Positions 1,784 to 51,960 of a stretch of 64,000 nt of DNA are shown here, piece after piece. Both the position numbers and the translations under genes were made by a program. The stretch's first letter is position 1. Each line of letters opens with the position of its first letter. Source of the DNA: Candidatus Rifleibacteriota bacterium (GTDB lineage Bacteria > Muiribacteriota > Ozemobacteria > Ozemobacterales > Ozemobacteraceae); contig JANJUX010000033.1 of assembly GCA_024710355.1 (NCBI GenBank), forward strand, positions 181,981-245,980, in the 5' to 3' direction. The notes below the pieces were generated by a model. It searched no databases and was not told where the DNA came from. It saw only the letters and a list, made by a program, of their open reading frames with translations.

Positions 1784-3454
1784 TTATTCTTCATGCACTG
1801 AAATCAGCAGCTTTTCAGGCTGAACGAATTCGTCAGGAAAACCCGGAACATTTCCCTGCAGCTCTGCAAGGGTGTTTCCGGGTTTTTCTGTCAAACGCAG
1901 CAATTCTGCCGGCGGCAGATGCAGGCCCTTGAGAGTCTGGTTTTTAAAACTGAACTCCCGGGCCATATATTTTTTATTGAGAAACGCGCGACCAATGGTA
2001 ACCGGCACGCTGTCACCCTCGTAAACCATCATCAGAACAGCATTACCCGTCTGAGAAAAGACAATACGACCTGTCAGATCGCCTTTGATATTAAGCTTTT
2101 TCTGAAATTCGTCTTCGCTGATCGTCTCACCAAGCATCCCGGCTTCTTCATTGATCTGCAGACTTTCAAACCCGGCAGCAAAGTCAGCTGGAGTAACAAG
2201 CTCGGATGGAGACAGCTCCACACCGGCAATATAAAGATTGCCGGAACTGTCAGCATGCATTGCCTGTACCGGGAGCTCAGGAACAATAGTTTTTAAGTAG
2301 CTTGCCTTTGAAATACCGTTTTCATTGAGACTGAAGCAGTAAATCTTCTTCTCTGGAGCTGAATAAATAAAAGCTCTTGTCTGGCGACCCTCTTCGACAT
2401 TGCAGAAAACTGCCAGCGAACATTCAGAACCCGTCTGCTCAATGTTGTTTTCGCGCAACCAGTCGTGCAGAACATCGGTTCCGACTACATAGATGCGTCT
2501 TGAACTGCCAGAAACATTCATGCCGACAAAGCGTGACAATGGTGCTTTCGAGGCTATAGTCGGCTGAAAAATGCTTGGCTCGCCATTAATAAAGAAGGCA
2601 CCCGCATCTTTACCCGTCCAGGTGTGAACCAGCAGACTGCCTTCACCGATTGCACCCGAGCGATCGTGGTAACACGCAAATCCCGGAACACTTTCCATTG
2701 CTGCCTGGTTGTCGACCTCAGGAAGTATTTCCATGGCACCGTCGACTGCGGCCCTGAAAAACCTTCGGCTGATTCCCTTGCCGGCTTTTCGTTCAAATAC
2801 CCTGCCCGGAATGAATCCACGCCAGATTGATTCCTGGCAGAAAAAGTTCTGCTCCTGCCAGCAGTCGTAAAAGATCTTGTATGACTCAGAAGCCGGCTGT
2901 TCAACAGGAAACCAGGTCTGATACCAGCTGCCATTAGGTAATTTATACCAGCTACGACCTTCGACCGGTGCATATTCGCCTTCAGACAAACCCGTTCGTG
3001 CGATGCCGTCACTTACCGGGTGCCCCGGCCCAGCACTGAATGGGGCTCCCGCTGGCCGAAAAACCGGCTGACCATCAGCACCGGCAACGAGACTGCTTCT
3101 CTGGTCCTGGTGCTGTGAATGCCCGTGTCTGCCACGATCAGCGTCTACGGCCAGTCCATCGAAAACCTGCCGATAAATATGGCCGGGCATTCTGACAAAT
3201 TCGCCCTCACGCACAAGATTTACAAACCGGTAATTGCGCAATTTATCGACCATAAATGCCTCTGCACCTGGATCGCACGCAAAAATAAACCCGGTTGGCA
3301 GCTGGTTCTGGTCACCGGTTGAAAGACGAAACACTTTGCCGGCATCTTTATAGCCAAGATACAGATAGCTTTCAAATGCACCAGCCGGGGCACACATGGC
3401 GGTATAAATCAGCGTTGCCGCTGTAATCAGCCTGGCAAAAGGATTGCGCATCAA
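1784..3454 (-). CDS. secreted hypothetical protein (signal peptide)
   Basis: 556-aa ORF, N-terminal hydrophobic signal (LITAATLIYTAMCAPAGA); no recognisable catalytic motif. Confidence 0.5.
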   Translation of the reverse strand: MMRNPFARLITAATLIYTAMCAPAGAFESYLYLGYKDAGKVFRLSTGDQNQLPTGFIFACDPGAEAFMVDKLRNYRFVNLVREGEFVRMPGHIYRQVFDGLAVDADRGRHGHSQHQDQRSSLVAGADGQPVFRPAGAPFSAGPGHPVSDGIARTGLSEGEYAPVEGRSWYKLPNGSWYQTWFPVEQPASESYKIFYDCWQEQNFFCQESIWRGFIPGRVFERKAGKGISRRFFRAAVDGAMEILPEVDNQAAMESVPGFACYHDRSGAIGEGSLLVHTWTGKDAGAFFINGEPSIFQPTIASKAPLSRFVGMNVSGSSRRIYVVGTDVLHDWLRENNIEQTGSECSLAVFCNVEEGRQTRAFIYSAPEKKIYCFSLNENGISKASYLKTIVPELPVQAMHADSSGNLYIAGVELSPSELVTPADFAAGFESLQINEEAGMLGETISEDEFQKKLNIKGDLTGRIVFSQTGNAVLMMVYEGDSVPVTIGRAFLNKKYMAREFSFKNQTLKGLHLPPAELLRLTEKPGNTLAELQGNVPGFPDEFVQPEKLLISVHEE

Positions 3455-3626: not shown

Positions 3627-4904
3627 TTATTTGACGCTGAAAGGATTGGTAGTTTCGGTCTTAACTTTGATATCGGCAGGTCTGCCGGTATTGGTGGCTT
3701 CAGTACCAGAAGCAGCCGTGCCGTTCTCTTCGGCGTCTTTTGCTTCGGCACGGGCTTTAAGCCAGGCTTTGGCGGCATCTGATTTGCCAATGTATTCCAT
3801 CATTTCTTTGTCCGAGAGCTTGCCAAACGTTTGTTCATCGATGATCTTCGCCATCTTTTCGATATCGCCGGGGTTCTTTTTGGCAAATTCGAGTGTCAGT
3901 GATTTGAGGCTGCGAAACAGTTTCCAGCGGGTTTTCAGGAAGGCATCAAAAACCTTGTTTTTACCACCATCGATTTCGGTGGCCATGCGGTGCATGATTA
4001 CGGCGTTGATACCTTCGACACACATTAGCTGCTCGCCGGTCAGTGTTTCTGGTTCGACGTTGGTGTAGTCGCCAGCTTTTTCTTTACTTTCAACCTTGAC
4101 CAGACTGATGTTGTTTCGCATCTGAGTGGCTTTTTCCTCGGAATCGAGCATTTCGTTGAATTCGGCCCAGCCTTCGACAAAAGCGCTGCGCGGCTTTGAC
4201 AATTCGTTGGCATAGTGAGAACCGTCTTTGCCGTATGGATGAATGAATTCTTTGATGGTGCGGTCAAATGAATGGGCAAATTCATGCACAAAGGTCGATC
4301 TGGCACTGACGTCTGAGCCAGGCCAGCTATAGCGATTGCTCGACATCTGTATGGTCGGACCGCTTGAGTAGGGCCAGAAATCATCTTTGATTTCCGGATA
4401 TTTGGCAGGATCATCGAACCCGGTTGTATCAGAGAGAATGACGTTGATTGAAGATCTGAAATTATATTGCATGCGATCTTTAACATCCTGCGACTTAGAA
4501 TGGCGATAGACAGCCAGCAGAGCTTTCTGGCCATCTGAAAGTTCAGACTCACTTTTGGCACCCATCAGCTGCAGAAGCTGTTCTTCGCTGGTCACCTTGA
4601 CGCGTTTTACATCGTAGGCAATGTTTTTGTTGTCTGAATACCAGCGTTTAGTGCCTTCACCCGGGGCATAATTGCGGGTTACGGCCTTTTCCCAGGTCTT
4701 TTTCACCAGATTGACACCGCTCTTGAGAAAGCTTTTGGTATGCCCCCACCAGCCCTCGGGTTCAGGGTCGTTTATCTGCACCACCTTTTCGATGCACTGG
4801 TAATAAAAATCGAATTCACAGTCTTTGGCAGCGGCAGAATAAGGCTGCAGGCAAAAGACAGTCGCTACAAACATCACCAGCAGCAACATTTTAATTTTTT
4901 TCAA
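3627..4904 (-). CDS. secreted HExxH zinc-metalloprotease-like protein
   Basis: 425-aa ORF with signal peptide MKKIKMLLLVMFVATVFC and HEFAH (HExxH) motif. Confidence 0.5.
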   Translation of the reverse strand: MKKIKMLLLVMFVATVFCLQPYSAAAKDCEFDFYYQCIEKVVQINDPEPEGWWGHTKSFLKSGVNLVKKTWEKAVTRNYAPGEGTKRWYSDNKNIAYDVKRVKVTSEEQLLQLMGAKSESELSDGQKALLAVYRHSKSQDVKDRMQYNFRSSINVILSDTTGFDDPAKYPEIKDDFWPYSSGPTIQMSSNRYSWPGSDVSARSTFVHEFAHSFDRTIKEFIHPYGKDGSHYANELSKPRSAFVEGWAEFNEMLDSEEKATQMRNNISLVKVESKEKAGDYTNVEPETLTGEQLMCVEGINAVIMHRMATEIDGGKNKVFDAFLKTRWKLFRSLKSLTLEFAKKNPGDIEKMAKIIDEQTFGKLSDKEMMEYIGKSDAAKAWLKARAEAKDAEENGTAASGTEATNTGRPADIKVKTETTNPFSVK

Positions 4905-5326
4905 GGTTGGCTCCTGAATTTAACGGGCCGGGCCCGGAATAAGGCAATTTTTAAAAACTTACGCATACTAGCGAAACATTTTCTAATTATACAGTCAGAC
5001 ACAAAAAACACCAGACCGGTCGATGCAAATCAGAAAGCAAACACGCCTGGCCTTTGTCACAGCAACCAGCAGCGGCTGGGTTTGCTTGTCCGGGCAATAT
5101 CGAGTTCTCCGGCATTTTCCCTCAGATAATTTATACCACTGCGAAGTGAAAAAAGTTTTTCAATTGCGGCGGGCAAAAAGGGGTACATAATTATGTAAAC
5201 CGTACAGCCGCTCAAAAAATTTATGTACACCGTCTTGACAAAAACGATTTTTATTTTTGCAATGCTTTTTTCAACGAACCTCTGAAATGCCCATAAATAG
5301 TTGTTGTCAAGAGGGTAGCTTTTTTA

Positions 5327-5388
5327 TTTTTCCACAGCATTAACATCGCTTGCAATGCTTTTCCCCAAAGTTTTCCACATTTTCCACG
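5327..5388. promoter_or_regulatory. cluster of 3-4 DnaA-box-like 9-mers (TTTTCCACA/G)
   Basis: ttttccaca at 5328-5336 and 5371-5379, ttttccacg at 5380-5388, ttttcccca at 5360-5368; same 9-mer family as the boxes upstream of dnaA. Confidence 0.4.
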
Positions 5389-5474
5389 CCAAAACAGGGT
5401 ACAGTCTGCCGCAAGATTTTTAGGCGGTGCTCCTGGCTTAAAATGCGGTTTTCAAAAGGTGCATAATTTACCAG

Positions 5475-5506
5475 ATAAAAAAAATCTGCGGTTACCCACA
5501 GATTTT
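5475..5506 (-). terminator. rho-independent terminator downstream of dnaX
   Basis: Minus-strand hairpin AAATCTG-N10-CAGATTT followed by T7 run (plus-strand A-run 5475-5483). Confidence 0.5.
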
Positions 5507-5534
5507 TCGCGCCATATTATCAGTTTTTTAATAA

Positions 5535-7319
5535 CTAATCGTCGATGCTGATTATTTCACCGCCAAAAACCTCCAGAGCGTCGGCAACAGACGGTTTTTG
5601 CAGCATTTTCTGCCGTGCCTGCTCATCGATTTTTGCTATCTGCTCAACATGACTCAACCGTACAGGCGGGGTTTCTTCACCAGACGACCCCTGAGCCCCG
5701 GCCATGCCTATTCTCACGGTATCAATGTTGCCGTACACTGCTTTTGCAGCTTCGAGAAGAATTGCGTGATTCTTCTCTTCCTTAAGCTTGCCGGCTGCAA
5801 ATGTCTGCTCCAGCAGAATTTCAAGTATCCCGTTTTCTGGCTTTTTGAAACGGGCATTTACCAGCAAAGCCTGACAAACATTGGATCTGCTGCCAACTGC
5901 GTTGCGAAATTCCGCGAAGGGGTCGGTATTTTTCGACGTTACCGTAGTCATCGGCACCACATTGTCCGGCAGATGCGTCGGCCTTGGCGTAGAAGGCGAC
6001 TGCGACGACACCAGCGTCGGGCGCGCAGATGGAGCTGAAGTCGGCTGGGTAACCGGGGCCATTGCAGGTGCCGGCCGGCCGCCACGTGCCATACCAGTGG
6101 CACCAGGTTGACCTGCCAGCCTTTTAACTGCGGCCAGCTTTTGTTCAAGCTGCTCAACCCTTTTTTCAAGCGCTTCAGAAGCAAAGATCTCGTCGCCGAG
6201 ACCGAGACGAATCAACTCTGATTCGAGCAGCACTCTGGCCTGAAGTGAGCTTCTGATTGTCATCAGAGCCCTTTCGACCCGGGTAACGGCGCCGATCAGA
6301 TAACGTGCCGACAGCTGGCCGATCTGGTTTCTGAGTTCGGCGGCCTGTTCGGCCGGAAGATCGAGAACCTGGTTCGCCTCAGGGTCGATGCGCAGTATCA
6401 TGCAGCGCCGCAGATATTCGAGCAGGTCGCGCCCGATGGTCTGTGGCTCGTAACCTCGGAAATACAGGTCGTTCAGCTGCTTGACCAGAGCGGCAAGGTC
6501 ATGCGCAAAAATGGCGCCGGCAATGGTTTTGAGCGTCGAATAGCTCAGACGCCGCGTCATTTCAAGAACCTGATCGAGGGTTATCAGCTCAGTCGAAGCC
6601 GAGGCCGAGATCTGATCAAGCAGACTGAGCGCATCGCGAAATCCGCCTTCGGCACATTCAGCGATCATCGAAAGCGCTTCGGGCTCAAAAGCCGGAAATC
6701 CGCCATCGGCGTTTTCGAGTTTGACGATCTCTTCAAGGCGGGCCTGAATGGTTCGCCGCGAGACCGAATGAAAATCGAAGCACTGGCAGCGTGAAATAAT
6801 AGTGGCCGGCACCTTCTGGGGGTCGGTGGTGGCCAGAACGAAAAGTACATTCGGAGGCGGCTCTTCAAGCGTTTTGAGAAAGGCGTTGAATGCCGAACCC
6901 GAGAGCATGTGCACTTCGTCGATGATATAAATTTTGTATTTACCCTCGGCCGGGCGGTATTTAACCTTTTCGCGCATCTGCCTGATGTCTTCAACGCTGT
7001 TGTTACTTGCCGCATCGATTTCGATGATATCCATGAAATTCATCTCTTCGATACGCCGGCAGTTATGGCAGACGCGGCAGCAGTCGGGCAGACCGCGGGC
7101 ATCTTTCTGCAGGTCAGTGCAGTTGAGAATCTTGGCAAGCAGGCGGGCGGCCGAGGTTTTACCGGTGCCGCGCGGCCCGGAAAACATATAGGCGTGGGAA
7201 ATACGATCAGAAGCGACCGCAGACTGAATGGTGCGTGAGATGTGTTCCTGGCCCGACAGTTCAGAAAAACGCTGGGGGCGATATTTGCGATACAGGTTCT
7301 GGCGGGCTGGTGCGGTCAT
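5535..7319 (-). CDS. dnaX: DNA polymerase III subunit gamma/tau
   Basis: YRKYRPQRFSELSGQEHI...GPRGTGKTSAARLLAKILNC Walker A/clamp-loader signature; zinc module CxxC..CxxC; located next to SRP RNA as in Bacillus scr-dnaX. Confidence 0.9.
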   Translation of the reverse strand: MTAPARQNLYRKYRPQRFSELSGQEHISRTIQSAVASDRISHAYMFSGPRGTGKTSAARLLAKILNCTDLQKDARGLPDCCRVCHNCRRIEEMNFMDIIEIDAASNNSVEDIRQMREKVKYRPAEGKYKIYIIDEVHMLSGSAFNAFLKTLEEPPPNVLFVLATTDPQKVPATIISRCQCFDFHSVSRRTIQARLEEIVKLENADGGFPAFEPEALSMIAECAEGGFRDALSLLDQISASASTELITLDQVLEMTRRLSYSTLKTIAGAIFAHDLAALVKQLNDLYFRGYEPQTIGRDLLEYLRRCMILRIDPEANQVLDLPAEQAAELRNQIGQLSARYLIGAVTRVERALMTIRSSLQARVLLESELIRLGLGDEIFASEALEKRVEQLEQKLAAVKRLAGQPGATGMARGGRPAPAMAPVTQPTSAPSARPTLVSSQSPSTPRPTHLPDNVVPMTTVTSKNTDPFAEFRNAVGSRSNVCQALLVNARFKKPENGILEILLEQTFAAGKLKEEKNHAILLEAAKAVYGNIDTVRIGMAGAQGSSGEETPPVRLSHVEQIAKIDEQARQKMLQKPSVADALEVFGGEIISIDD

Positions 7320-7412: not shown

Positions 7413-7682
7413 GTCGTGCACCTGACTTCGAACATACGTCAATGGTACGTATCCTGAACTATAGGCTCCGGACAGGCGCTGCCACATCACCCGAAAGCGA
7501 TCGTTTACCGTTGCTACCTTCCGATCCTGGCGGAGTTCACGGACTTTCGCCGTGTGGAACCCGTCCTTCGATGCTTCTAGAACTGGCCGTTGCCACCAAC
7601 AATGCCCTCTGTCAGGAATTCGATCCGCCTGGCGGGGATTTGCGGTGGATAAGGGACCCCGAGCCCCCCATCTAGCACGACA
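7413..7682 (-). ncRNA. ffs: signal recognition particle RNA, large Bacillus-type with Alu domain
   Basis: Minus-strand 5' GUCGUGCUAGAUGGGGGGCUCGGGGUCCCU...CCGCAAAUCCCCGCCAGGCGGAUCGAAUUCC aligns with B. subtilis scRNA Alu domain; domain IV motif CCAGGAUCGGAAGGUAGCAAC; 3' end GGUGCACGAC pairs with 5' end; ~270 nt. Confidence 0.8.
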
Positions 7683-7683
7683 A

Positions 7684-7771
7684 CGGAAAGGGCGGGATTC
7701 GAACCCGCGGTGGAGTTGCCCCCACTCACGCTTTCCAGGCGTGTGCCTTAGACCAACTCAGCCACCTTTCC
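7684..7771 (-). tRNA. tRNA-Ser (anticodon GGA)
   Basis: Cloverleaf with long variable arm; acceptor GGAAAGG/CCTTTCC; anticodon loop CUGGAAA; no encoded CCA; 3' end abuts SRP RNA 5' end. Confidence 0.85.
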
Positions 7772-7806
7772 GATTGAGGGAAAATTAAAACCCTCAGAAA
7801 AGAGCA

Positions 7807-7882
7807 ACGCGCCCGAGAGGACTCGAACCTCTGGCCACCAGATCCGCAATCTGGTGCTCTATCCAAACTGAGCTACGGGCGC
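7807..7882 (-). tRNA. tRNA-Arg (anticodon GCG)
   Basis: GCGCCCGTAGCTCAGTTTGGATAGAGC...anticodon stem CCAGA/TCTGG with loop UUGCGGA...GGTTCGAGTCC T-arm; 76 nt. Confidence 0.8.
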
Positions 7883-7892
7883 AAATTCGCTT

Positions 7893-7981
7893 CGGAGAGA
7901 GGGGGATTTGAACCCCCGGTACCAGTTACCCAGTACGACAGTTTAGCAAACTGTTGGTTTAAGCCACTCACCCATCTCTCC
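7893..7981 (-). tRNA. tRNA-Ser (anticodon GCU)
   Basis: GGAGAGATGGGTGAGTGG...anticodon loop UUGCUAA, long variable arm, GGTTCAAATCC T-loop. Confidence 0.85.
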
Positions 7982-7992
7982 AGAGATGCAAT

Positions 7993-8075
7993 CGGAGGAA
8001 GTAGGATTCGAACCCACGGAGCTTTCACCCTGCGGTTTTCAAGACCGCCGCCTTAGACCACTCGGCCATTCCTCC
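7993..8075 (-). tRNA. tRNA-Ser (anticodon UGA)
   Basis: GGAGGAATGGCCGAGTGGTCTAAGGCG...anticodon loop CUUGAAA, variable arm, GGTTCGAATCC T-loop. Confidence 0.85.
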
Positions 8076-8080
8076 AGTGC

Positions 8081-8266: not shown

Positions 8267-8662
8267 TCAGGGAGCTTCTGCTGCCGGTGTGGCCGGGTCT
8301 GGAGATGAAACCGGAGCCTGAGGCGCCGGGGCAGCCTGACTACCCTGTTCATTCTTTTCGTTGATCGTGTAAATCACGAGTTCTTCGGGTTTAACCAGTC
8401 CAAGGCGCTCACGCGCCAGCCTTTCGATGCCTTCGGGAGTAGAAAGCATTTCAAGATTCTGTTTCAGATGCCGGTTTTCGCGTTCGAGCGCTTCGATGCG
8501 TTCACGCAGCTCAGCCTCGCGCTGCAGCAGTGTGCGGATATTGTTGTAGCGGACAAGATAGGTTATCGACAGAGCAACACAGAATACCACCGACAGAATG
8601 AACATGATTTCTGTCGAAAACCGCACACGTTTACGTTTGACCGGCACTTTTTCTTCGTTCAT
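8267..8662 (-). CDS. ftsB: septum formation initiator FtsB/DivIC family
   Basis: 131 aa; single N-terminal TM (IMFILSVVFCVALSITYLV) followed by coiled coil (LLQREAELRERIEALERENRHLKQNLEML); Pro/Ala-rich tail. Confidence 0.65.
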   Translation of the reverse strand: MNEEKVPVKRKRVRFSTEIMFILSVVFCVALSITYLVRYNNIRTLLQREAELRERIEALERENRHLKQNLEMLSTPEGIERLARERLGLVKPEELVIYTINEKNEQGSQAAPAPQAPVSSPDPATPAAEAP

Positions 8663-8734: not shown

Positions 8735-11440
8735 TCAGTCGGCAGTCTCTTCTTTCGACGGAATTCTGACGACAGAGATCAGCCTGTCATCGCCATCGAG
8801 AGTTATCAGCTTGACCCCGGAAGCGGCGCGACCGGTGTTTCTGATCGAATCGGCGCTCAGACGCACGACTTTGCCGTTGGTGGTGACGACCATCAGCTCA
8901 TCACCCTCGAACATGCGTTTGATTGCGAGAACTTCGCCGGTCTTTTCCATGATCTTGAGGTTGATGACGCCTTTACCACCACGATGAGTAACGCGATAGC
9001 TGTTGACATCGGTCTTTTTGCCGAAACCAAGTGCCGAAACGGTCAGCAGCCGGCCTTCATAGCGACCATCATCTTCGACTGGCGGCGCGGTTTCGCCATC
9101 AGGGGCCTCGTCGATGATTTCGTCTTCGATAACTTCATCGACGACTTCATCAATTACCTCATCGATCGGCGCTTCTGCTTCGGCAGCCACGGTAATATCG
9201 CCATCAACAGACGGCACTACGGCAACATGCAGCTCGCCATCGTCATCTTTCTTGCGGCTGAAAACTTCCATGCCGATTACTTCATCGTTCTTGTCTCTGA
9301 AGGTGATGGCTTTAACCCCACGGGCTGTTCTGCCCATGACGCGCACTTCACTTTCAGGGAAACGTATGGCATAGCCGTTGCGGGTCGCAATAACCACCTG
9401 CTCGCCGCCGTTGATTGGTTTGACGCCAATCAGTTCATCGCCCTCGTCAAGCTTGAGTGCAATTATGCCGCGAGCCATCGGTCTGGCAAACGCCGACAGA
9501 ATGACCATCTTCGAGACACCCTTGCGGGTTACCATGAACAGACGGCGTGTATCGTCAAACTTCTTGATCGGCAGAATCGCAGTGAGGGTTTCGTTCTCTT
9601 CGAACTGCAGCAGATTGACCATGGCGCGGCCACTTGCCTGGCGACCGCCTTCGGGTATCTGGTAACCCTTGATCCAGTGCACTTTGCCGATCGAAGTGAA
9701 TACCAGCAGATATGAATGGGTCGTGGCCAGGAACATGTGTTCGACGACATCTTCGTCTTTGACGCCCATGACATTGCTGCCCTTGCTGCCACGGCTGATC
9801 TGCCTGAAAACGCTCGGTGACATGCGTTTGACATAGCCGTTCTTGGTCAGGGTGATGATGATATCTTCTTCCTGCATCAGATCTTCGACATTCAGTTTTT
9901 CGGCTGAAGATCTGGTAATCTTGCTGCGGCGGGCATCACCGAAGCGGGCTTTGATGTCGAGGAGTTCTTCTTTGATGATTTCTCTGACCTTCTCGTCTGA
10001 TTCGAGAATGCCTTTGAGCTTCTGGATCAGAGCCAAAGTATCGTGATATTCGGCGATGATCTTGTCGCGTTCGAGGCCTGTCAGTCTCTGCAGTCGCATT
10101 TCAAGAATCGCCTGTGACTGTTTATCAGAGAGCATGAAGGTATCCATGAGGCCCTGTTTGGCTTCATTCGGATCTTTAGCTGATTTGATCAGCTCGATGA
10201 CCGCGTCGAGATTGTCTAGAGCGATCGTCAAACCTTCGAGAATGTGGGCCTTTTCTTCGGCCTTGCGCAGCTGGAACACGGTTCTGCGGCGAATGACTTC
10301 GCGGCAGTGATTGACATAGTGTTCCATCATTTGCTTGAGATTGAGAACCAGCGGGCGGTTGTCGACGAGAACCAGGTTGATTACGCCGAAACTGCTCTGC
10401 ATCTGAGTGTGCTTGTACAGCTGGTTGAGAATGACATCGGTATTAACGCCCTTGCGCAGTTCGATACAGACGCGCATACCTTCGCGGCTCGACTCATCGC
10501 GCAGGTCGGTAATGCCATCGATCTTCTTTTCCTTGATCAGATCGGCGATTGATTTGACCAGGCGGGCTTTGTTGACCTGATAAGGCAGTTCGGTAACGAC
10601 GATGCGGTCGCGGCCCTTGTTGAATTCTTCAATTTCGACGACCGAACGAACGACGATGCTGCCGCGGCCGGTTTTGAAGGCTGATTCGATGCCATCGGTA
10701 CCCATGATGATACCGCCGGTCGGGAAATCCGGGCCGGGAATATGGTTCATCAGCTCATCAATGGTTACTTCAGGGTTGTTGATCAGCTGAATCAGGCCGT
10801 CAATGACCTCCGCAAGGTTATGAGACGGCATGTTGGTCGCCATACCAACCGCGATGCCTGATGAACCGTTGACCAGCAGATTCGGAAACTTGCTGGGCAG
10901 CACGATCGGCTCATTCAGAGAGCCATCGAAGTTCGGCATCCATTCAACCGTTTCCATCTCGATGTCTTTGAGCATTTCTTCTGCCAGGGCTTCGAGACGG
11001 GCTTCGGTATAACGCATTGCCGCTGCTTCATCGCCGTCAACTGAACCAAAGTTACCGTGACCGTTGATCAGCGGGTAACGCAAGCTGAAATCCTGGGCCA
11101 TGCGAACGAGGGTGTCATAAACAGCTGAGTCGCCGTGCGGGTGATACTTACCAAGAACTTCCCCGACGGTGCGGGCTGATTTGACGAAAGGTTTCTTGCT
11201 GGTGATGCCCTGATCGAACATTGCATATAGCACACGGCGGTGAACCGGCTTCAGGCCATCTCTGACGTCTGGCAGAGCGCGGCCGACGATTACGCTCATC
11301 GCGTAATCGATGTATGAAGCCTTCATATCGTCTTCGATATTGATATGTCTGATGCCTGTCGTTGGTGGCGGAGGAGGAGGAGGAGGAGTCTCGATACCGC
11401 CAGTTTCCTCGACAGGAATATTTTCGTTGATGTTATCCAT
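8735..11440 (-). CDS. gyrA: DNA gyrase subunit A
   Basis: [33 protein letters not shown]...catalytic Tyr region; CTD beta-pinwheel; unusual N-terminal tail with PPPPPPPP and acidic CTD insertion. Confidence 0.95.
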
Positions 11441-11456: not shown

Positions 11457-13481
<2,025 letters not shown>

Positions 13482-13766
13482 TTAATATCGATACTGGGAA
13501 CTCATCTTCCATTCAGCCTTCAGGTATTCTGCCTGCTGAAAGGGGTGACAGATTCCGCGTTGTGCAAGTGCTTCGGGGGAAAGGGTCGAACCGATCCAGC
13601 GACCATCAACGGTTTTGATGGCTGCCCGGTATTCGCCCGCATCTTCAAGCTTCGGCAGAGTCTCGACCACACGCCGGCGCGTGGCTTCATCGACAGTCTG
13701 CAGATTTATGATCAATTCACAGGTCTTGAAATCAACGAACTCATTTTGACCGATATGAATCAGCAT
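13482..13766 (-). CDS. DUF370 (RemA/RemB-like) protein
   Basis: MLIHIGQNEFV...AAIKTVDGRWIGSTLSPEALAQR matches RemA pattern (I.IG.....LIDATYGRRTR.VII.....LS...PETVAQR); same position upstream of gyrB as B. subtilis remB (yaaB). Confidence 0.6.
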   Translation of the reverse strand: MLIHIGQNEFVDFKTCELIINLQTVDEATRRRVVETLPKLEDAGEYRAAIKTVDGRWIGSTLSPEALAQRGICHPFQQAEYLKAEWKMSSQYRY

Positions 13767-14728
13767 TCTGGTTCTCCGGGTTTGATTGCCAGGTAAGCAT
13801 GCCAGCGTTCATCAGGCACCTCCTGGGTATTCAGATGTTCAAAATCCACTTCATCAGGCATGCAGCCGCTGAAAAGCATCATGCTGCGCACCATCTCTTT
13901 GCGCATGCGGGCTGCAGTCTCTTCGTCGTAATTCAACGAAAGATCGGCCGCCAGTTCCTGGATTAGGTTCAGGCTTTCATCGAGCAGTTCGGCACGAATT
14001 GCTTCGAACTCAACGATGGTAAGGCCGCTTTCGAATTCGCAAACTTCTTCAAGCGTCAGCCAGGGCATTTCTGAAATCAGCACCCTGGCCTTTAAAAGGT
14101 TGTCTTCGCGGGTTTTATAAACACACATCGCACAGACACCGTTTTTCGAGCGGGTTACTGCGGCACGGCACAACACACACAGTTTATAGCCGCGTTCTTC
14201 GAGACCCTTTAGTCTGGCGTTCAGCTTCTGCTGACAACGACGCATCTGTTCTGACAATTCCTGATCCTTTAACTCTGCCATTGGCACTTCATCTTCGCTC
14301 TGCCAGTCGGGCCAGGTGGCTTCTTTAACCATCTTTTCGACTTCCGGCGGTATTACCCCCGGCTTGCCGACCACTTCGCCGATTTTCATCTCGGGGAAAA
14401 GCTCATTAAGCTTCTCGATAATTCTGGCTTTGAGAAACACCAGTGTCTGCATCCACTGGCTGTCGGCTACCGCAAGATAGAGGCGGCCCTTGATCAGACG
14501 GGTCGGGCAGGTTTTGGCGGCCAGCTGCAAACCGACAACGTCTTTCCAGGCGTTGATGAGTTTGCCAAGCGTAACCAGCTCTTTTGCCGTCAGCACAAAG
14601 CGCTGGCGGTTCTCAGACGCACGAAAGGTGGCTTCGCGCATGCCTGACAAGGCTTTGACCAGAGAGAAGCTCGCGGGTTTCGTGCCGCCGACTCTCCGGT
14701 TCGCTGCAGTCTGCTTGAAGGTTTCCAT
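13760..14728 (-). CDS. dciA: DciA-like DUF721 protein with C-terminal zinc-ribbon extension
   Basis: N-terminal ~110 aa resemble DUF721 (as Mtb Rv0004 between recF and gyrB); C-terminal CVLCRAAVTRSKNGVCAMC CxxC-N13-CxxC; overlaps DUF370 by 7 nt. Confidence 0.55.
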   Translation of the reverse strand: METFKQTAANRRVGGTKPASFSLVKALSGMREATFRASENRQRFVLTAKELVTLGKLINAWKDVVGLQLAAKTCPTRLIKGRLYLAVADSQWMQTLVFLKARIIEKLNELFPEMKIGEVVGKPGVIPPEVEKMVKEATWPDWQSEDEVPMAELKDQELSEQMRRCQQKLNARLKGLEERGYKLCVLCRAAVTRSKNGVCAMCVYKTREDNLLKARVLISEMPWLTLEEVCEFESGLTIVEFEAIRAELLDESLNLIQELAADLSLNYDEETAARMRKEMVRSMMLFSGCMPDEVDFEHLNTQEVPDERWHAYLAIKPGEPEC

Positions 14729-14881
14729 TGGCCCTCTGGCTGTTGTCAGTCAATTCCCTCTCAGGGAAGAAGAGAGGGTGTAATATACTACTCTAAAATG
14801 ACTTTTTTTTCAAGTAGTAACAACAGTCGGAAATTAGCTTAAAAACGCCTCTCGTAGCGTTTTTAAACGGGCCGGCAATAC

Positions 14882-16294
14882 TTATTGCTTATCGGGGTCG
14901 ACAAAGCGTCTGACGCGCTCGAATTCTTCGGCAAATGCCTTTTCCTGTTTGAGCTTGCGGTTAACTTTATCGCAGGCGTGCATGACGGTCGTGTGGTCAC
15001 GGCCACCGAATTTGTCACCGATCTGATTGAGTGAGGCATCGGTAAAAATCTGACACAGGCGCATGGCAACCTGCCTCGGAAGCACGAGATTCTGCGAACG
15101 CCTTTTCCCGGTCAGTTCGCTTTCAGAAATATCGTAAAATTCGGCGACGCGTTTTTGAATCCAGGGAATACTGATCTTGCCACCGGCATTTTCACGCAGA
15201 ACGTCTTTGAGCACCTGGTCGACCATATCCTTGCTGACCGGTTTTCGCATGATGCCGGCAAAGGCGAGAACGCTGTTGAAGGCGCCCTCCAGATCGCGAA
15301 TATGCGATACGACGTTCTGAGCCATATACATGATGATCTCGTCTGATACTTCTACCATTGACTGGCTGGCGAATTTTTTAAAAATAGCGGCGCGCATTTC
15401 GAGGTCTGGTGGCTGAATATCTACTACCACACCCATACCAAATCTTGAGGCCAGGCGTTCTTCGAGTGATTCGCCACCGCGCTGAATCTTGCTTGGAGCT
15501 GAGTCAGAAGTGAGAACGATCTGTTTTTTCTGCTGAAAAAGTTCATTAAACGTGTGAAAGAATTCTTCCTGGGTCTGTTCTTTGCCGGCAAAAAACTGCA
15601 CGTCATCGATCAGAAGCAGGTCAATTTTGCGATATTTCGAACGAAACGCTTCGGCTTTTTTATCTTTCAGCGAATCGATGAATTCGTTGGTGAAAACTTC
15701 TGAAGAAAGATAGGCAATCTTGGCTTTTGGGTTGTTTTTAAGCAGTTCCTGGCCGATTGCCTGAATCAGATGGGTCTTTCCAAGGCCAACGCCGCTGTAA
15801 ATGAATACCGGGTTATGAAGGCTGCCGGGGTTTTTAGCTACTGCCTGGCAGACTGCGTAGGCAAACTGATTGCTCTTGCCGACGACAAACGAATCAAATG
15901 AATACTTGCTGTTAAACATGCCGTCATATCTGGCCGGAACTGTTTTAGCAGATTTTAGTGGTTCATCATCGGTTCTGATTGCCGGAATTGTCGGCTGCTG
16001 AGGTTTGCCTGCAGCCGGCCGGCCGGTTTTAGTCACCAGACGATATTTGAGAGCCGGCTTTTCGCCGCTGAGAATGCGGGTAATTACATCGGCATAACGC
16101 TTTTCTGCGAGGTCGCGGCAGAAATCGTTTGCGGCTTCCATGACCAGATGGTCGCCTTCAATAGCTGCCGGCGTGATGGAACTGAGGAAAATCTTTGAAC
16201 TTGCCTTGTTTTTACTGCTTCCATCAGCCTGGATTTCTGTGGTGATTTTATTCCAGAGCGTATCGAGCGACGATATCATGTACAATGACCTCAC
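14882..16294 (-). CDS. dnaA: chromosomal replication initiator DnaA
   Basis: AAA+ Walker A IYSGVGLGKTHLIQAIG, DnaA domain IV DHTTVMHACDKV; DnaA boxes upstream. Confidence 0.95.
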   Translation of the reverse strand: MRSLYMISSLDTLWNKITTEIQADGSSKNKASSKIFLSSITPAAIEGDHLVMEAANDFCRDLAEKRYADVITRILSGEKPALKYRLVTKTGRPAAGKPQQPTIPAIRTDDEPLKSAKTVPARYDGMFNSKYSFDSFVVGKSNQFAYAVCQAVAKNPGSLHNPVFIYSGVGLGKTHLIQAIGQELLKNNPKAKIAYLSSEVFTNEFIDSLKDKKAEAFRSKYRKIDLLLIDDVQFFAGKEQTQEEFFHTFNELFQQKKQIVLTSDSAPSKIQRGGESLEERLASRFGMGVVVDIQPPDLEMRAAIFKKFASQSMVEVSDEIIMYMAQNVVSHIRDLEGAFNSVLAFAGIMRKPVSKDMVDQVLKDVLRENAGGKISIPWIQKRVAEFYDISESELTGKRRSQNLVLPRQVAMRLCQIFTDASLNQIGDKFGGRDHTTVMHACDKVNRKLKQEKAFAEEFERVRRFVDPDKQ

Positions 16295-16389
16295 AGCTTT
16301 GTGTACAACAACTTTAGATAACCAGAGAAAGCAATAGCCACGTAAAACGGGTTATTCTGCGTTTGTTGGGATGCTTGAATAATAGCAGA

Positions 16390-16660
16390 CAAAAGCCTTA
16401 TCCGCAAGGTTTTTTAGCATCAATGTTCTGATAATGATCTGGAAAACAATGTGGAAATTATGTGGAAAAATCGTGGAAAACCACAAACATAAAAATATGT
16501 TAACAAACAGTGAAAAACTTCAAAGGCTTTCAACAACTTTTTCCACATCAGCTAATAACGACCTGAAAAGTTGTACACGGGTTTTCCACAGTTTCCACCG
16601 AACCTAAAGAATAATAAGACTATTTCTTTTAATTAATTATGTACAACATAATTATAGCCA
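16390..16660. other. chromosomal replication origin (oriC): DnaA-box cluster + AT-rich DUE
   Basis: DnaA-box 9-mers at 16398-16406 (ttatccgca), 16449-16457, 16461-16469 (tgtggaaaa), 16472-16480, 16539-16547 (ttttccaca), 16582-16590, 16591-16599; AT-rich 16600-16660; immediately upstream of dnaA. Confidence 0.7.
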
Positions 16661-16713
16661 ATGTGCAAAAACAGACATCAAAAAACAAACCAGCACTTAC
16701 ACAAATATACCGT

Positions 16714-16742
16714 ATTGCCCATGTTTTGCCTATCTGGTATAC
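16714..16742 (+). promoter_or_regulatory. sigma70-like promoter TTGCCC-17-TATACT for accB
   Basis: TATACT at 16737-16742 with TTGCCC 17 nt upstream. Confidence 0.45.
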
Positions 16743-16773
16743 TCGCCTCACTCTAATCGCCATGGAGAAAAAA

Positions 16774-17307
16774 ATGCCAAAAGCAGTTGCGAAGGAAAAA
16801 ACCGTCAGGGTTGCCACAGATAAACAGGGCCAGGTCATTGATCAGGTCGTGAATATAATCAAATTCATGGGCGAAAACCGCCTTGCCGAGATCGAACTCG
16901 AAACTTCTAATCTTAAACTCAGCCTTAAAAAGCATTCTGTTGCTGCACATCATGTTGTTCAGCCACAGACCGCTGTTATGCCGATGCCAATGATGCATAT
17001 CGAGGCACCGGCAATCAAGAAACAACCGGAAAAAGCGCCAGCAGCCGAAAAACCAGCCGCTGCCGACAACCTGAAAACCGTTGTTTCGCCGATGACCGGC
17101 ACCTTTTACAGAGCTCCATCACCTGATTCACAGCCTTTTATAAAGGAAGGCGACGTAGTCAAAGCCGGCCAGACAATCTGCATCGTCGAAGCGATGAAGA
17201 TGATGAATGAAATCAAGTCTGACAAAGCCGGAAAAGTGGTAAAAATTCTCATCGAGAACGGCAAACCCGTCGAAAAGGGCGCTGCTCTCATCAGTATCGG
17301 AGAATAA
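16774..17307 (+). CDS. accB: biotin carboxyl carrier protein (biotinyl domain)
   Basis: C-terminal [41 protein letters not shown] with EAMKM biotinyl-lysine motif; GGAG RBS before ATG 16774 (alternative ATG 16762); ORF-track N-terminal extension to 16639 runs into oriC and is rejected. Confidence 0.8.
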
Positions 17308-17309
17308 TC

Positions 17310-18677
17310 ATGCAGACTTTTGATCTGATCATTCTTGGCGGCGGTCCTGGTGGTTACCCTCTGGCAGCACGCATGGCGCGCAAAGGCTGGAAAGTGGCCA
17401 TCGTCGACAACGACAGCGAATTCGGCGGCACCTGCCTTAACTGGGGTTGCATACCGACGAAGGCGCTGCTGGCGTCTTCACGCGCACTGCACCTGCTGAA
17501 GAGCGCGGCTGATTTTGGTCTCAGCTGCGAAAATCCGGGTTTTGACTGGTCAAAAGTTCTCGAACGCAAGAATAAAATCACGGCACAGCTGCGCCAGGGC
17601 ATCATCAAGATGCTCGAAAAAAGCGGTGTTACTCTGTTCAGAGGTCTCGGAAAGCTTTATAAAAACCGGGTGGTAAAAATTGCCGGTCACGAAGAGGCGA
17701 TTCAGGGCAATAAGATTTGCCTGGCAGTTGGTTCGGTTCCGGCCGCTCCGGCGGTTTTTCCGGCCAACCGCAGCATTTTCTGGACAAGCAACGAGGCACT
17801 TCATACGGCAGAAGTTCCGCAGAGCCTGCTTGTAGTCGGTGGCGGTGTTATCGGCATCGAGCTCGGCCAGGTATTCGCTGAATTTGGCAGCAAAGTCTGC
17901 GTGGTCGAAATGATGCCGCAGATTCTGCCAGGTCTCGATAATGCCACCGCAAAGCGCCTGCTGCCGGTTTTCAAAAAATCAGGCATGGAAATCATGACCG
18001 GCAAAAAGGTCGATTCGCTGACCGAAAAGAACGGCCGGGCACTCGCGGTAATCGATGGCACCGAGCGCGAATTCGACAAGGTTCTGATAGCTGTCGGCCG
18101 CCGCGTTAACATGAGTTTCATGCACGAAACCGACGTGCAGATCGAAACCGAACGCGGTCTGCTCAAAACCGGCGACGATTATCAGACAAGTGAACCCGGC
18201 GTCTTTGCGATCGGCGATGCAATCAAAGGCCCGATGCTGGCTCATAAAGCCTCTTATGATGCCATGATTCTCGCTGCTCAGTGGCAGGGTGAGAAAGTGG
18301 CGGCCGATTATTCACTCGTTCCGTCATGTGTTTACACCCACCCCGAAATTGCCTGGGTCGGTCAGAGCGAAGATGCCCTGAAAGAAAAGGGCATTGAATA
18401 TAAAACCGGTCGCAGCCTGTTTTCGGCTAATGGCAAAGCACTTACTGCCGGCGAAGGCGATGGGCAGATCAAGACCCTGATCGGCAACGACGGCAAACTT
18501 CTTGGAGCGGTCATCTGGGGCCCGGAAGCCAGCAATATCATCAACGAAGCCACGATGATGGCCCAGTTCGGCATCGATAATCACGCCTTCAGCCGCATGA
18601 TCCACCCGCACCCGACTCTTTCCGAAGCTTTCATGGAAGCGGTTGAGAATGTGAGCGGCGAAGGAGTTCACGGCTGA
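17310..18677 (+). CDS. lpdA: dihydrolipoyl dehydrogenase (E3)
   Basis: FAD motif IILGGGPGG, redox disulfide GGTCLNWGCIPTK, second Rossmann VVGGGVIGIELG. Confidence 0.85.
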   Translation: MQTFDLIILGGGPGGYPLAARMARKGWKVAIVDNDSEFGGTCLNWGCIPTKALLASSRALHLLKSAADFGLSCENPGFDWSKVLERKNKITAQLRQGIIKMLEKSGVTLFRGLGKLYKNRVVKIAGHEEAIQGNKICLAVGSVPAAPAVFPANRSIFWTSNEALHTAEVPQSLLVVGGGVIGIELGQVFAEFGSKVCVVEMMPQILPGLDNATAKRLLPVFKKSGMEIMTGKKVDSLTEKNGRALAVIDGTEREFDKVLIAVGRRVNMSFMHETDVQIETERGLLKTGDDYQTSEPGVFAIGDAIKGPMLAHKASYDAMILAAQWQGEKVAADYSLVPSCVYTHPEIAWVGQSEDALKEKGIEYKTGRSLFSANGKALTAGEGDGQIKTLIGNDGKLLGAVIWGPEASNIINEATMMAQFGIDNHAFSRMIHPHPTLSEAFMEAVENVSGEGVHG

Positions 18678-18678
18678 A

Positions 18679-19860
18679 ATGAAAAGCGCCGGGTTTATCA
18701 ACCTGCCTGAATGGAAAAGACGTTTACAGGAGATCCTCAGCAGTCTCGGGCGTGAAGAGGCGCTGAAATTTCCGGTGCTTGGCCGTGAAAATGCCGAGAA
18801 ACCCTGGATGGCTCTCGATTCAGGCGATTTTTTCGCAGCAGTTCAGACCGGTATTCATTTTACCGGTGGCAGTCATGTAAAAAAACTGCCTGAAAACGTC
18901 ATTACTACCGATGCAGAGCTGGCAATCAGGCGTCTGCTCGAGGGAAAACACCGCCAGACTTTTTTCAGCGCCGCCATCGGCGGGACTTTTCCCTTTCAGC
19001 GGGTTATCTGTTCTGAGTATGCGGTTGCCAGACCCGAAAAAATAATGGTGCAGAACGATTCTGTCACCAGTTTCGTGCTGTCGCGCATGGAAAAAGAGGG
19101 CAAAACCCTCGAACAGGCGATTCACGAAGCCCAGTGGGAAAAGCTGGCCGGCGGCAATCCCAGCCAGAATCTGCATGGCATAGTCAGCAGAAATCGTCTG
19201 GTATTGCAGATTGCCCATATTTTTGGGTATATACTGCGACCCGAAAATATATTCACCGCCGGTATAAGCACATTGTCTGTCGATGATGTCAGAATTGCTG
19301 CTGAATTGGGTTTCTCAATCAGACTGCTCGGCATTGCCAGGCACCAGGAAGGCATAGTCAAAGCTCTGGTCGAGCCATGCATGATTCCGTCCAGATATCT
19401 GCTGGCTCAGGCCCGTGGTGGCTCAGAAATGATTTACGTTCGCACTACCGATGGCATGACTCAGTTTTATTCATGCCCCGGCACCTCGCCCGAAATTCAG
19501 GTGCGCGGCATTCTTTCTGATCTTTATGACGAGTGTCGAACCAGAGCTGCTGGTCTGACAGCCCCTGGCCGGATCGAACCATTTGCCGACCATTTTTATC
19601 TGCGTTTCAACATCGTTAATCTGACCGACACCATGGCACAATTGCTGCAGATGCTTAACCGCAATGGTATCGAGATCGAAAAAATTCACCAGACTGCCGT
19701 TGCCGTTTCACGGGAAACTTCTGATACTGCGGGGTACGCAGTTATTCTCATTACCAGTCGCACTACCCGCGATAATCTTGAAAGAGCGCTCGGGCAGATT
19801 GCCGGTCAGGTTAAGCTGGCAGGTCTGAAGGCCTGTTTTCGTTACATAAGGCAGGCCTGA
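18679..19860 (+). CDS. homoserine dehydrogenase homolog lacking canonical N-terminal NAD(P)-binding motif
   Basis: Central/C-terminal region matches Hom catalytic + ACT-like region (LLGIARHQEGIVKALVEPCMIPSRYLLAQARGGSEMIYVRTTDG...); N-terminal 150 aa lack GxGxxG. Confidence 0.55.
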   Translation: MKSAGFINLPEWKRRLQEILSSLGREEALKFPVLGRENAEKPWMALDSGDFFAAVQTGIHFTGGSHVKKLPENVITTDAELAIRRLLEGKHRQTFFSAAIGGTFPFQRVICSEYAVARPEKIMVQNDSVTSFVLSRMEKEGKTLEQAIHEAQWEKLAGGNPSQNLHGIVSRNRLVLQIAHIFGYILRPENIFTAGISTLSVDDVRIAAELGFSIRLLGIARHQEGIVKALVEPCMIPSRYLLAQARGGSEMIYVRTTDGMTQFYSCPGTSPEIQVRGILSDLYDECRTRAAGLTAPGRIEPFADHFYLRFNIVNLTDTMAQLLQMLNRNGIEIEKIHQTAVAVSRETSDTAGYAVILITSRTTRDNLERALGQIAGQVKLAGLKACFRYIRQA

Positions 19861-19865
19861 AATCA

Positions 19866-21080
19866 ATGTTTGCCAACGGCGAAGTTCTTGTACAGAAGTT
19901 TGGCGGTTCATCCATGGGCTCGGTTGAGCGCATAAAAAAAGTCGCCGAGCGCATTGCCGAAAAGGCCCGGCGCGGCCACCGCATGGTCGTTGTGGTTTCG
20001 GCAATGGGCGATACTACCGACGACCTGATTGCTTTGATGAACAAGGTTACTCCAGTGCCAGAACGGCGCGAGCTCGATCATATAATGGCGACCGGGGAAA
20101 TGGTCAGCGCATCACTGGCAGCAGCGGCTCTCAAAGATCTTGGCGTGCGTTCACGCTCTTTTAACGCTTTCAATCTGCAACTTTTTTCAGAAATGCAGGG
20201 CGAAGACTACAATATTGTCAGAATTGGCCGGGCCAGACAGCTGACCGAATTTCTCGAACCGGGCTCAGTTGCTGTGGTAGCTGGTTTTCAGGGTATTACC
20301 GGCGATGGCGACCTTACGACCCTTGGGCGCGGCGGTTCTGATCTCACGGCTGTCATTCTGGCGCGCGAGCTGGGCCAGAAAGTCTGCGAAAAATATACCG
20401 ATGAAGATGGTATTTATACGGCCGACCCGCGCATCATCCCCGATGCCAGAAAAGTATGGCACCTCAGTTATGATGAGATGCTGATGCTGGCCGGGTTTGG
20501 TAATGGCATTCTGCACCCGCGCGCCATTTCCAGCGCCCGCGACTGCCAGATACGCATTCATGTGCGTTCGAGTTTTTCAAATGCCGAAGGCAGTGTTGTT
20601 GGCCCTGATGGCGATGATCAAATAGCCGTTAAAAGCATAACCTGCGACAACAAGCTTGTTTATATGCGCATGCACGGGATTGCTCAGCCCGACGCGGTTT
20701 TGCTCGAAGACCTGGCGAATCAGCCTTTCAAGCCTTCAGTGCAGCAATTCAAACCTTATAACGAGCTGAAGGGAAGCTTTCGCCTTGGTTTCAGGCGCAG
20801 CGATGCCTTTTCGGCGATCCCTTTCTGCTGGGAACACGCCGCCCGGATGAACGCCGACGAGGTCGAATGTTTTGCCAACCTTACCACGATAACACTGGTT
20901 GGTTGCGGTCTTGCCGGCAACAGCCAGCTGGCTGCCGCCTTTGCCCGCACTCTCGGAAATATCGTGCCGACTGTCGAGCAGCATGACCGTATCAGGCTAA
21001 GCTACGCCGTCGACAAGGCCGAAGTTAAACCGGCCATGGAAGCACTGCATCGCGCCATTACCACTCCGCAGACTGCCTGA
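19866..21080 (+). CDS. lysC: aspartate kinase
   Basis: LVQKFGGSSMGSVERIKKVAERI...VVVVSAMGDTTDDLI aspartokinase signature; C-terminal ACT region. Confidence 0.85.
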   Translation: MFANGEVLVQKFGGSSMGSVERIKKVAERIAEKARRGHRMVVVVSAMGDTTDDLIALMNKVTPVPERRELDHIMATGEMVSASLAAAALKDLGVRSRSFNAFNLQLFSEMQGEDYNIVRIGRARQLTEFLEPGSVAVVAGFQGITGDGDLTTLGRGGSDLTAVILARELGQKVCEKYTDEDGIYTADPRIIPDARKVWHLSYDEMLMLAGFGNGILHPRAISSARDCQIRIHVRSSFSNAEGSVVGPDGDDQIAVKSITCDNKLVYMRMHGIAQPDAVLLEDLANQPFKPSVQQFKPYNELKGSFRLGFRRSDAFSAIPFCWEHAARMNADEVECFANLTTITLVGCGLAGNSQLAAAFARTLGNIVPTVEQHDRIRLSYAVDKAEVKPAMEALHRAITTPQTA

Positions 21081-44397: not shown

Positions 44398-44881
44398 TAT
44401 CGAACTTCCAGTTTTCGACCATATTTCAGAGCGCCCGAGCTGGGATGTCTATTTTATGCGCATCGCCAAAATTGTGGCGCAGCGCTCGACCTGTCTCAGA
44501 CGCCAGGTTGGTGCGGTAATTGTGCGCGAAAATCGCATGCTGGCAACTGGTTACAATGGCGCTCCGGTCGGGCTGGCTCACTGTTTTCAGCTTCCCGGCG
44601 GCTGTCTGCGCGAAGCTCAGAAGATTCCTTCGGGCCAGCGCCAGGAGCTCTGCCGCGGCCTGCATGCTGAACAGAACGCGATTCTGCAGGCGGCTGCGTT
44701 CGGCGTTTCCCTGAAAAACAGTGATTGCTACTGCACTCACCAGCCCTGTGTAACCTGTGCTAAGATGCTTATGAACGCGGGTATCAAAAGAATCGTGTTT
44801 CTTGGCGATTACCCCGATGAACTCTCGCTCGAAATGCTTAAAGAAGGCAAGATCACGCTCGAAAGGATAGAAATAGACTGA
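44384..44881 (+). CDS. dCMP/cytidine deaminase family (ComEB-like)
   Basis: HAEQNAI zinc-binding H(A)E and PCVTCAKML PCxxC motifs; 14-nt overlap with upp. Confidence 0.8.
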
Positions 44882-51947: not shown

Positions 51948-51960
51948 AGGGAGACTGCCC

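Follow-up and report, generated by a model that had tools for sequence, protein, structure and literature searches.

The 64,000-nucleotide stretch of DNA analyzed here (the window; positions 181,981 to 245,980 of contig JANJUX010000033.1, assembly GCA_024710355.1) carries a row of replication genes on its minus strand, namely dnaA, dciA, a small gene of the RemA/RemB (DUF370) type, gyrB and gyrA, with a region rich in DnaA boxes upstream of dnaA. Very probably, this locus represents the replication gene island near the origin of a chromosome of Candidatus Riflebacteria (Rifleibacterium type), derived by scattering from the ancestral operon dnaA-dnaN-recF-(dciA)-(remB)-gyrB-gyrA, and operates in the manner expected from the protein families involved. 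Accordingly modeled on these families, DnaA would bind the box array and melt the adjacent AT-rich DNA, and DciA would then help to load the DnaB helicase in place of an ATPase loader of the DnaC/DnaI type. Loading would proceed via the KH-like DUF721 domain together with a lineage-specific C-terminal domain comprising a putative zinc ribbon and helices, which would replace the short tail of Vibrio DciA. Like RemA, the small co-translated RemB-like protein probably forms oligomers and binds DNA, and it would act with gyrase or at the origin. Since dnaN is an essential gene, it is presumably encoded elsewhere in the genome.

The gene row, which had been listed in the same order in the initial annotation of this DNA, is borne out by domain and profile matches. 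Here and below, gene assignments and absences refer to the 64-kb window and are based on Pfam scans of about 50 open reading frames (ORFs) and on NCBIfam/TIGRFAM cut-offs for the key genes. The minus strand carries every gene from 5.5 kb to 16.3 kb. DnaA scores 495.5 bits against TIGR00362 (cut-off 343.9); the ORF as such extends over 14882-16294 from a GTG at 16294, and gene callers use the ATG that places the start at 16279. The gene directly following dnaA had correctly been described as DciA-like (DUF721), as it matches PF05258 over residues 50-119 with 53.6 bits at a cut-off of 24. From there on the genes are closely packed: there is a 7-nt overlap between the dciA stop and the ATG of the ORF encoding the 94-residue RemB-like protein, gyrB starts 12 nt after the stop of that ORF, and the gaps remaining between dciA and gyrA are 12-16 nt long. 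As in the canonical operon, gyrB and gyrA adjoin each other on the same strand as dnaA. Directly past the dnaA stop, the sequence of the dnaA-dciA spacer contains a weak hairpin. On the other side of the putative oriC, accB is indeed present and is transcribed away from dnaA (called start 16774, ORF start 16639), with the DnaA-box region lying in between. The genes assigned to the stretch 13482-16660 thus stand, DUF370 as a remote assignment (see below), and its end at 16660 does not coincide with a gene boundary, falling inside the intergenic region since accB starts at 16774.

A comparison with related loci reveals how much of this order is conserved. In five further Riflebacteria lineages (L009, L010, L012, L013 and L014), accB and a box region are followed by dnaA-dciA-small ORF-gyrB-gyrA-ftsB...dnaX, ftsB and dnaX being visible only where the locus extends that far, and the DciA proteins of this group are 47-57% identical to that of the window where measured. 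The loci L007, L008 and L011 keep the order dciA-small ORF-gyrB-gyrA-ftsB, with sugar-nucleotide genes ahead of dciA and dnaA not adjacent; dnaX follows in L007 and L008, and L011 ends short of the corresponding position. Wherever a related locus extends far enough past gyrA, an ftsB/divIC gene occupies the next position. The more distant locus L093 (GCA_964483805.1) has the order dnaA-recF-dciA-gyrB-gyrA with recF at 8919-10013, a DciA of 352 residues and, between dciA and gyrB, an ORF of 106 residues that matches the profile of the 94-residue family at 6.6e-12. The metagenome contig L094 similarly shows recF-dciA. Because dnaA is non-adjacent in one clade, and because L093 keeps recF between dnaA and dciA, the conserved unit is dciA-remB-like-gyrB-gyrA(-ftsB...dnaX), and the adjacency of dnaA and dciA is a by-product. 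The initial annotation had pointed to dciA next to dnaA with no DnaC/DnaI-type gene in view; the latter part holds within the window, whereas the adjacency is not a conserved feature. The accompanying interpretation as a DciA-type initiation system is supported. Synteny in the relatives further indicates that the lineage of the window lost recF from a slot that is still filled in L093. Organism-named homologues of DciA and of the 94-residue protein belong nearly all to Candidatus Riflebacteria, Rifleibacterium or Ozemobacteraceae, the exceptions being a few unclassified labels of metagenome-assembled genomes (MAGs) and one entry labeled Erysipelotrichia.

The intergenic region between dnaA and accB is probably the origin, as it combines a DnaA-box cluster with a neighboring AT-rich element, close to dnaA and at a junction of divergent transcription. 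Eight matches to TTWTCCACA with at most one mismatch occur within 300 bp of this region compared to 45 in the whole 64 kb, which is far above chance. The array occupies positions ~16398-16599 and includes four tandem boxes at 16438-16480, spaced by 11-12 bp, and a box pair at 16582-16599. The pair is abutted by the putative unwinding element, which is rich in AT and extends over ~16600-16700; the region as a whole has an AT content of 64.6% (window, 48.5%), rising to 86% in a 50-bp stretch at 16605-16656. An A/T-rich trinucleotide-like run is located after the box pair, to which we attach no claim of a DnaA-trio. Alignment shows that this architecture of boxes and AT-rich sequence is kept in seven lineages.

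A second group of five DnaA boxes, here referred to as cluster B, is located downstream of dnaX, about 11 kb from the array upstream of dnaA. In an alignment of six Riflebacteria lineages, among which DciA identity is as low as 40-60%, its core GTGGAAAATGTGGAAAAC..TGGGGAAAAGCA...TGTGGAAAA is nearly invariant, almost base for base (L008, 19502-19562; L009, 19553-19604; L014, 20683-20734; L093, 19877-19939). On the 2.25-Mb contig JBMNHM010000003.1 of GCA_050950385.1, the cluster is located at about 479 kb. Cluster B may be either an auxiliary DnaA-binding locus or a true or second origin. It might be speculated that cluster B is the real origin and that the boxes upstream of dnaA serve mainly in dnaA autoregulation, or that the two clusters flank the replication island and work jointly, as a split origin or as an origin combined with a titration site. 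We regard this as unlikely. In its favor, the cluster persists in the clade that has no dnaA nearby (L008) and in L093, in which it is followed by a convergent gene and thus is not simply a promoter element. In L093, cluster B even has four boxes versus three in the region upstream of dnaA, and in the window the minimum of the cumulative GC skew falls between the two clusters. With regard to box number and base composition, the window itself points the other way, with eight boxes upstream of dnaA versus five in cluster B and an AT-richest 50 bp of 86% versus 76%, and the divergent dnaA/accB junction is a setting typical of bacterial origins. In addition, Bacillus subtilis possesses DnaA-box clusters outside oriC that are reported to regulate initiation without being origins (PMC3245932). 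Like these clusters and datA of Escherichia coli, cluster B is a compact intergenic array of consensus boxes located within a few kb of the origin genes; in contrast to most of the B. subtilis clusters, it shows conservation at phylum depth that does not depend on the orientation of the flanking gene.

Both box regions share a further sequence element. The palindrome TGTACA occurs nine times in the 64 kb, four copies of which (16279, 16302, 16572 and 16640) lie within 370 bp upstream of dnaA and one (5224) beside cluster B. TGTAC is also conserved adjoining the boxes of the relatives in both box-region alignments, and the palindrome may be a binding or methylation site.

The DciA protein encoded by the island is of unusual architecture and about twice as long as the DciA proteins characterized so far. 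Its DUF721/KH-like domain comprises residues ~45-122, and PF05258 is present in 71 of 71 homologues. An AlphaFold model (29 homologues) has a mean confidence score (pLDDT) of 82, with values of 85-97 across most of residues 50-300, and superposes on two solved DciA structures (PDB 8a3v and 7ykm), in agreement with a KH-like fold similar to that of DnaA domain I. The domain is followed by a conserved extension (residues ~125-322) which is predicted to be structured, with a long helix and several further helices. It contains a WP.W-type motif (WPDW in the window), a PWL motif and four cysteines (C183, C186, C198 and C201) in zinc-ribbon spacing, all of which are invariant. Neither sequence nor fold comparison identified a homologue of the extension among solved structures. 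When the extension was used by itself in an exhaustive profile search, at least 235 cluster representatives (clusters at 50% identity) were retrieved at E <= 1e-3, nearly all of which are 275-350 residues long and match at residues ~120-320. The N-terminal PF05258 domain was found in all nine sampled proteins of this length class, and was lacking in a tenth sampled match, the 2457-residue repeat protein P0157. As the 235 representatives share the extension and the sampled ones have the N-terminal PF05258 domain, the long DciA is, as judged by these profile matches, a distinct subfamily and not a one-off fusion.

In Vibrio DciA, the region C-terminal to DUF721 binds DnaB, the extensions differ by lineage, and those outside the DUF721 domain are essential in mycobacteria (bioRxiv 10.1101/2022.01.24.477630). 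By analogy, the extension of the long DciA may be the part that interacts with the helicase. The difference in architecture is considerable: DciA of Vibrio cholerae has 157 residues and a short DnaB-binding C-terminal tail, compared to 322 residues with a putative zinc ribbon and a multi-helix domain in the window, and this four-cysteine and helical domain, predicted at high confidence, sets the protein apart from both the V. cholerae and the Deinococcus radiodurans structures (8a3v, 7ykm). Mycobacterial DciA has an N-terminal extension ahead of DUF721, whereas in the window protein the domain is near the N-terminus and followed by the predicted structured extension of 200 residues. Given that these 200 residues are without counterpart in characterized DciA proteins or solved homologues, that DciA-domain proteins vary in architecture (bioRxiv 10.1101/2022.01.24.477630) and that the inspection covered 64 kb of the genome, the protein could alternatively be no helicase loader at all, the extension conferring some other role related to nucleic acids and the loader being encoded elsewhere. 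We consider this to be very unlikely: the DUF721 score is well over threshold, the model superposes on both solved DciA structures, and regions outside DUF721 are responsible for DnaB binding in Vibrio and are essential in mycobacteria. Moreover, the gene occupies the canonical dciA slot, with a single small gene separating it from gyrB and with recF directly upstream in L093 and L094.

The small gene between dciA and gyrB belongs to a family of 53 homologue clusters with 46-94% identity, and the possibility of a spurious ORF was rejected on the grounds of this conservation. In genomes with DciA identities of 49-55%, the 94-residue protein is 70-74% identical, compared to 74-77% for DnaA and 84% for GyrB. 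The profile of the family was compared to RemB (YaaB), taken as the small ORF directly upstream of gyrB in Bacilli loci. Profile alignment (hhalign) with 22 Bacilli RemB sequences covered 74 columns, end to end, with a probability of 94.4% (E = 9.5e-8). Matches to PF04025, likewise end to end but below threshold, were obtained for 15 of 23 family members (best E = 7.2e-5). Similarly, about 50 Bacilli loci have a small RemB ORF at the position that the 94-residue gene occupies immediately upstream of gyrB. Comparison of the predicted fold indicated the beta-beta-alpha wedge of RemA, which is related to LytTR; a PDB profile search with the family did not find RemA, whereas the fold comparison did. 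The protein shares with Bacillus RemA/RemB its length class, an N-terminal M-x-IH-[IL]-G motif and a C-terminal S-x-LS-x-x-[AT]-L-x-[KQ]-R motif, and differs from RemA/RemB (DUF370, PF04025) by a sub-threshold Pfam score and by an additional conserved C-terminal tail (ICHPFQQAEYLK.EWK). Because of the profile match and the shared position upstream of gyrB, we file it as a putative divergent member of the RemA/RemB superfamily. The initial designation as a DUF370 gene is therefore retained as a remote assignment, which profile homology and position support and which lies below the Pfam cut-off; an NCBIfam scan of the protein gave no match. RemA makes octameric rings that are thought to wrap DNA, and it has been stated that 'little is known about RemB', which is functionally uncharacterized (PMC8481266). 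By analogy to RemA, a DNA-binding role tied to gyrase or to the origin may be proposed for the 94-residue protein, and no link to biofilm genes is implied.

No sliding clamp, RecF/SMC_N, DnaB or DnaC/DnaI-type protein was identified by the Pfam scans, the only IstB/AAA matches in the window being DnaA itself. Across genomes, DciA and loaders of the DnaC/DnaI type are almost mutually exclusive. Bacillus DnaN, RecF and YaaA gave no match better than E = 0.02 in tblastn searches of the 64 kb, and Riflebacteria RecF gave none. Two ORFs of 425 and 404 residues without Pfam match were considered as hidden DnaN or RecF and rejected, as tblastn found nothing and as the protein of 425 residues has a signal-peptide-like N-terminus and an HExxH motif. 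The statement of the initial annotation that dnaN and recF are not in this neighborhood extends to the 47 kb beyond accB and the adjacent dihydrolipoyl dehydrogenase gene (lpd), where dnaN might have been located, and to the 13 kb beyond gyrA. In every Riflebacteria locus examined, as in the window, dnaN is absent from the island, including the position directly downstream of dnaA. Upstream of gyrB, recF is missing in the window and present in the relative L093, and tblastn detected no recF remnants in the dnaA-dciA spacers. Within the protein collection, no more than two proteins are closely homologous to RecF of L093; further matches are at most 39% identical and reside in a recF-tauE-ruvC context. 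In most of the Riflebacteria sequenced so far, recF may thus have been lost or have diverged strongly. A misassembly or chimeric join in the contig, which is indeed derived from a metagenome, can be dismissed with near certainty as the explanation for the missing dnaN and recF, since the order is identical in six independent assemblies from different runs (a Logan contig 100% identical over 16.6 kb, and five others, including two NCBI MAGs, at 99.0-99.9% identity with unchanged gene order) and in the five more divergent lineages described above, and since the dnaA-dciA spacer holds no recF remnant.

Several observations weigh against our interpretation of the locus. The cumulative GC skew, which in a window as short as 64 kb is dominated by local gene strand, reaches its minimum at ~9.8 kb, in a trough that is flat and spans 8-24 kb; larger swings occur elsewhere in the 64 kb, and 16.5 kb is not singled out. 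The conserved cluster B, 11 kb away, is a possible site of the true origin. The window copy of the 94-residue protein scores 12.6 bits (E = 0.15) against PF04025, for which the gathering score is 26, and its predicted structure is of low confidence (pLDDT 61). The absence of DnaC/DnaI, and likewise of DnaB, refers to the 64 kb of the window, and helicase loading by the long DciA would follow from what is known of the family. Finally, DnaA-led scans of genome contigs and metagenome contigs did not locate dnaN: the former, performed with the window DnaA, returned only two Riflebacteria loci along with 78 Bacilli loci, and the latter, performed with an alignment of Riflebacteria DnaA, was swamped by dnaA genes that are unrelated, with identities not exceeding 48%.

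With respect to known layouts, the gene order is an already described type of operon scattering, and nothing fundamental is changed. According to Brezellec et al. (2016), dciA has its place between recF and gyrB and, in scattered operons, next to one of these two genes (PMC5109545). In mycobacteria the layout is dnaA / dnaN-recF-dciA / gyrB-gyrA (PMC5720831). The island is similar to this actinobacterial arrangement in that dciA (Rv0004) is located close upstream of gyrB-gyrA, near dnaA and oriC (PMC5720831, PMC5109545), and differs from it in lacking dnaN and recF and in having the RemB-like gene inserted between dciA and gyrB. The canonical block dnaA-dnaN-recF-gyrB-gyrA, used as a reference in the initial annotation, is well represented by our Bacilli control (L015-L092), in which about 75 loci from the genome scan show dnaA...gyrB-gyrA; in L082, for example, dnaN, yaaA, recF and an 81-residue RemB are located between dnaA and gyrB. 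The window shares with the Bacillus layout the position of dnaA by a DnaA-box region, a RemB-type gene directly upstream of gyrB, the adjacent gyrB-gyrA pair and the nearby genes for the signal recognition particle (SRP) RNA and dnaX. It lacks dnaN, yaaA and recF of that layout and has dciA, which the Bacilli loci do not. Modestly new are the subfamily of long, structured DciA proteins, the deep conservation of a RemB-like gene with dciA and gyrB, and the paired DnaA-box clusters.

The coordinates of the island and its immediate surroundings are compiled in the table. The block of tRNA and SRP RNA genes sits immediately upstream of dnaX. Past the origin-like region, the plus strand carries accB and the genes for dihydrolipoyl dehydrogenase, homoserine dehydrogenase and aspartate kinase (16774-21080); accB is thus followed by lpd-hom-AK instead of accC, a row kept beside dnaA in several lineages. 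The window also contains pdxS/pdxT (39473-40968) and a tadA-like deaminase gene (44360-44881). On the B. subtilis map, scr-dnaX, tRNA-Ser, pdxST and tadA are all origin-proximal as well, and their shared position suggests an old synteny with Firmicutes.

Features of the island and its flanks (positions in the window)
Feature	Position	Strand	Details
Cluster B, five DnaA boxes	5328-5500		630-bp intergenic region 4905-5534, downstream of dnaX
dnaX, clamp-loader tau/gamma subunit	5535-7319	-	DNA_pol3_delta2 9e-46; NF004046 469 bits, cut-off 400
Four tRNA genes (Ser-tga, Ser-gct, Arg-gcg, Ser-gga) and SRP RNA	7414-8076	-	Rfam RF01854 128 bits, four tRNA matches; ARAGORN
ftsB/divIC-type septum-formation gene	8267-8662	-	PF04977 4.8e-12; directly past gyrA
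gyrA	8735-11440	-	DNA_topoisoIV 1.1e-169, DNA_gyraseA_C; 16-nt gap after gyrB
gyrB	11457-13469	-	HATPase_c, DNA_gyraseB, Toprim, DNA_gyraseB_C domains
RemA/RemB-like (DUF370-type) small protein, putative	13482-13766	-	94 residues
dciA, long-form DciA (DUF721)	13760-14728	-	322 residues; PF05258
dnaA-dciA spacer	14729-14881	-	153 bp; promoter-like site TTGAAA-17-TAGTAT at 14813-14785 (promoter scan)
dnaA, chromosomal replication initiator	14882-16279	-	465 residues from ATG; Bac_DnaA 1e-67, Bac_DnaA_C 1.7e-27
dnaA-accB intergenic region, probable oriC	16280-16773		494 bp; DnaA-box array and AT-rich stretch
accB, biotin carboxyl carrier protein	16774-17307	+	TIGR00531 152 bits, cut-off 115.2; EAMKM biotinylation motif

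Further ORFs of the window are of interest in their own right. Downstream of cluster B, the minus strand carries two large ORFs (3627-4904 and 1784-3454) without Pfam or NCBIfam match. The one of 425 residues combines a signal-peptide-like N-terminus with a HEFAH (HExxH) motif, suggesting that it is a metalloprotease that is secreted. A protein of 1313 residues (32802-36743) mixes Vps62, DUF7910, Fascin and FRG1-like domains, an unusual and eukaryote-flavored combination for a bacterium. Within a single ORF of 521 residues (51928-53493), a T2SSF segment (residues 23-111) is fused ahead of a T2SSE secretion ATPase domain (residues 136-511).

The conserved elements of the island may be of relevance beyond the window. 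In model organisms, the engagement of DnaB by DciA relies on a poorly ordered tail; the extension of the long DciA, which is strongly conserved and predicted to be folded and cysteine-coordinated, would offer a structured handle on this contact. The presence of a second, deeply conserved DnaA-box array makes the origin architecture of this candidate phylum worth mapping. To our knowledge, the RemB-type family is known only from a biofilm suppressor screen. That a gene of this type is kept between dciA and gyrB at phylum depth, at about the level of conservation of DnaA, points to a role in DNA topology or replication. As a more far-reaching, and in our estimate quite improbable, extension of these ideas, the Riflebacteria might possess a lineage-specific initiation module, consisting of a long DciA, the C-terminal domain of which would be the part binding helicase or single-stranded DNA, of a RemB-like DNA-wrapping protein that would be co-translated with DciA and gyrase and act at the origin or on local supercoiling, and of two conserved DnaA-box arrays ~11 kb apart that would bracket the island and function jointly, either as a split origin or as origin and titration site. 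If true, the RemB family would gain a role in replication or topology, which would also explain its conserved place upstream of gyrB in the Firmicutes.

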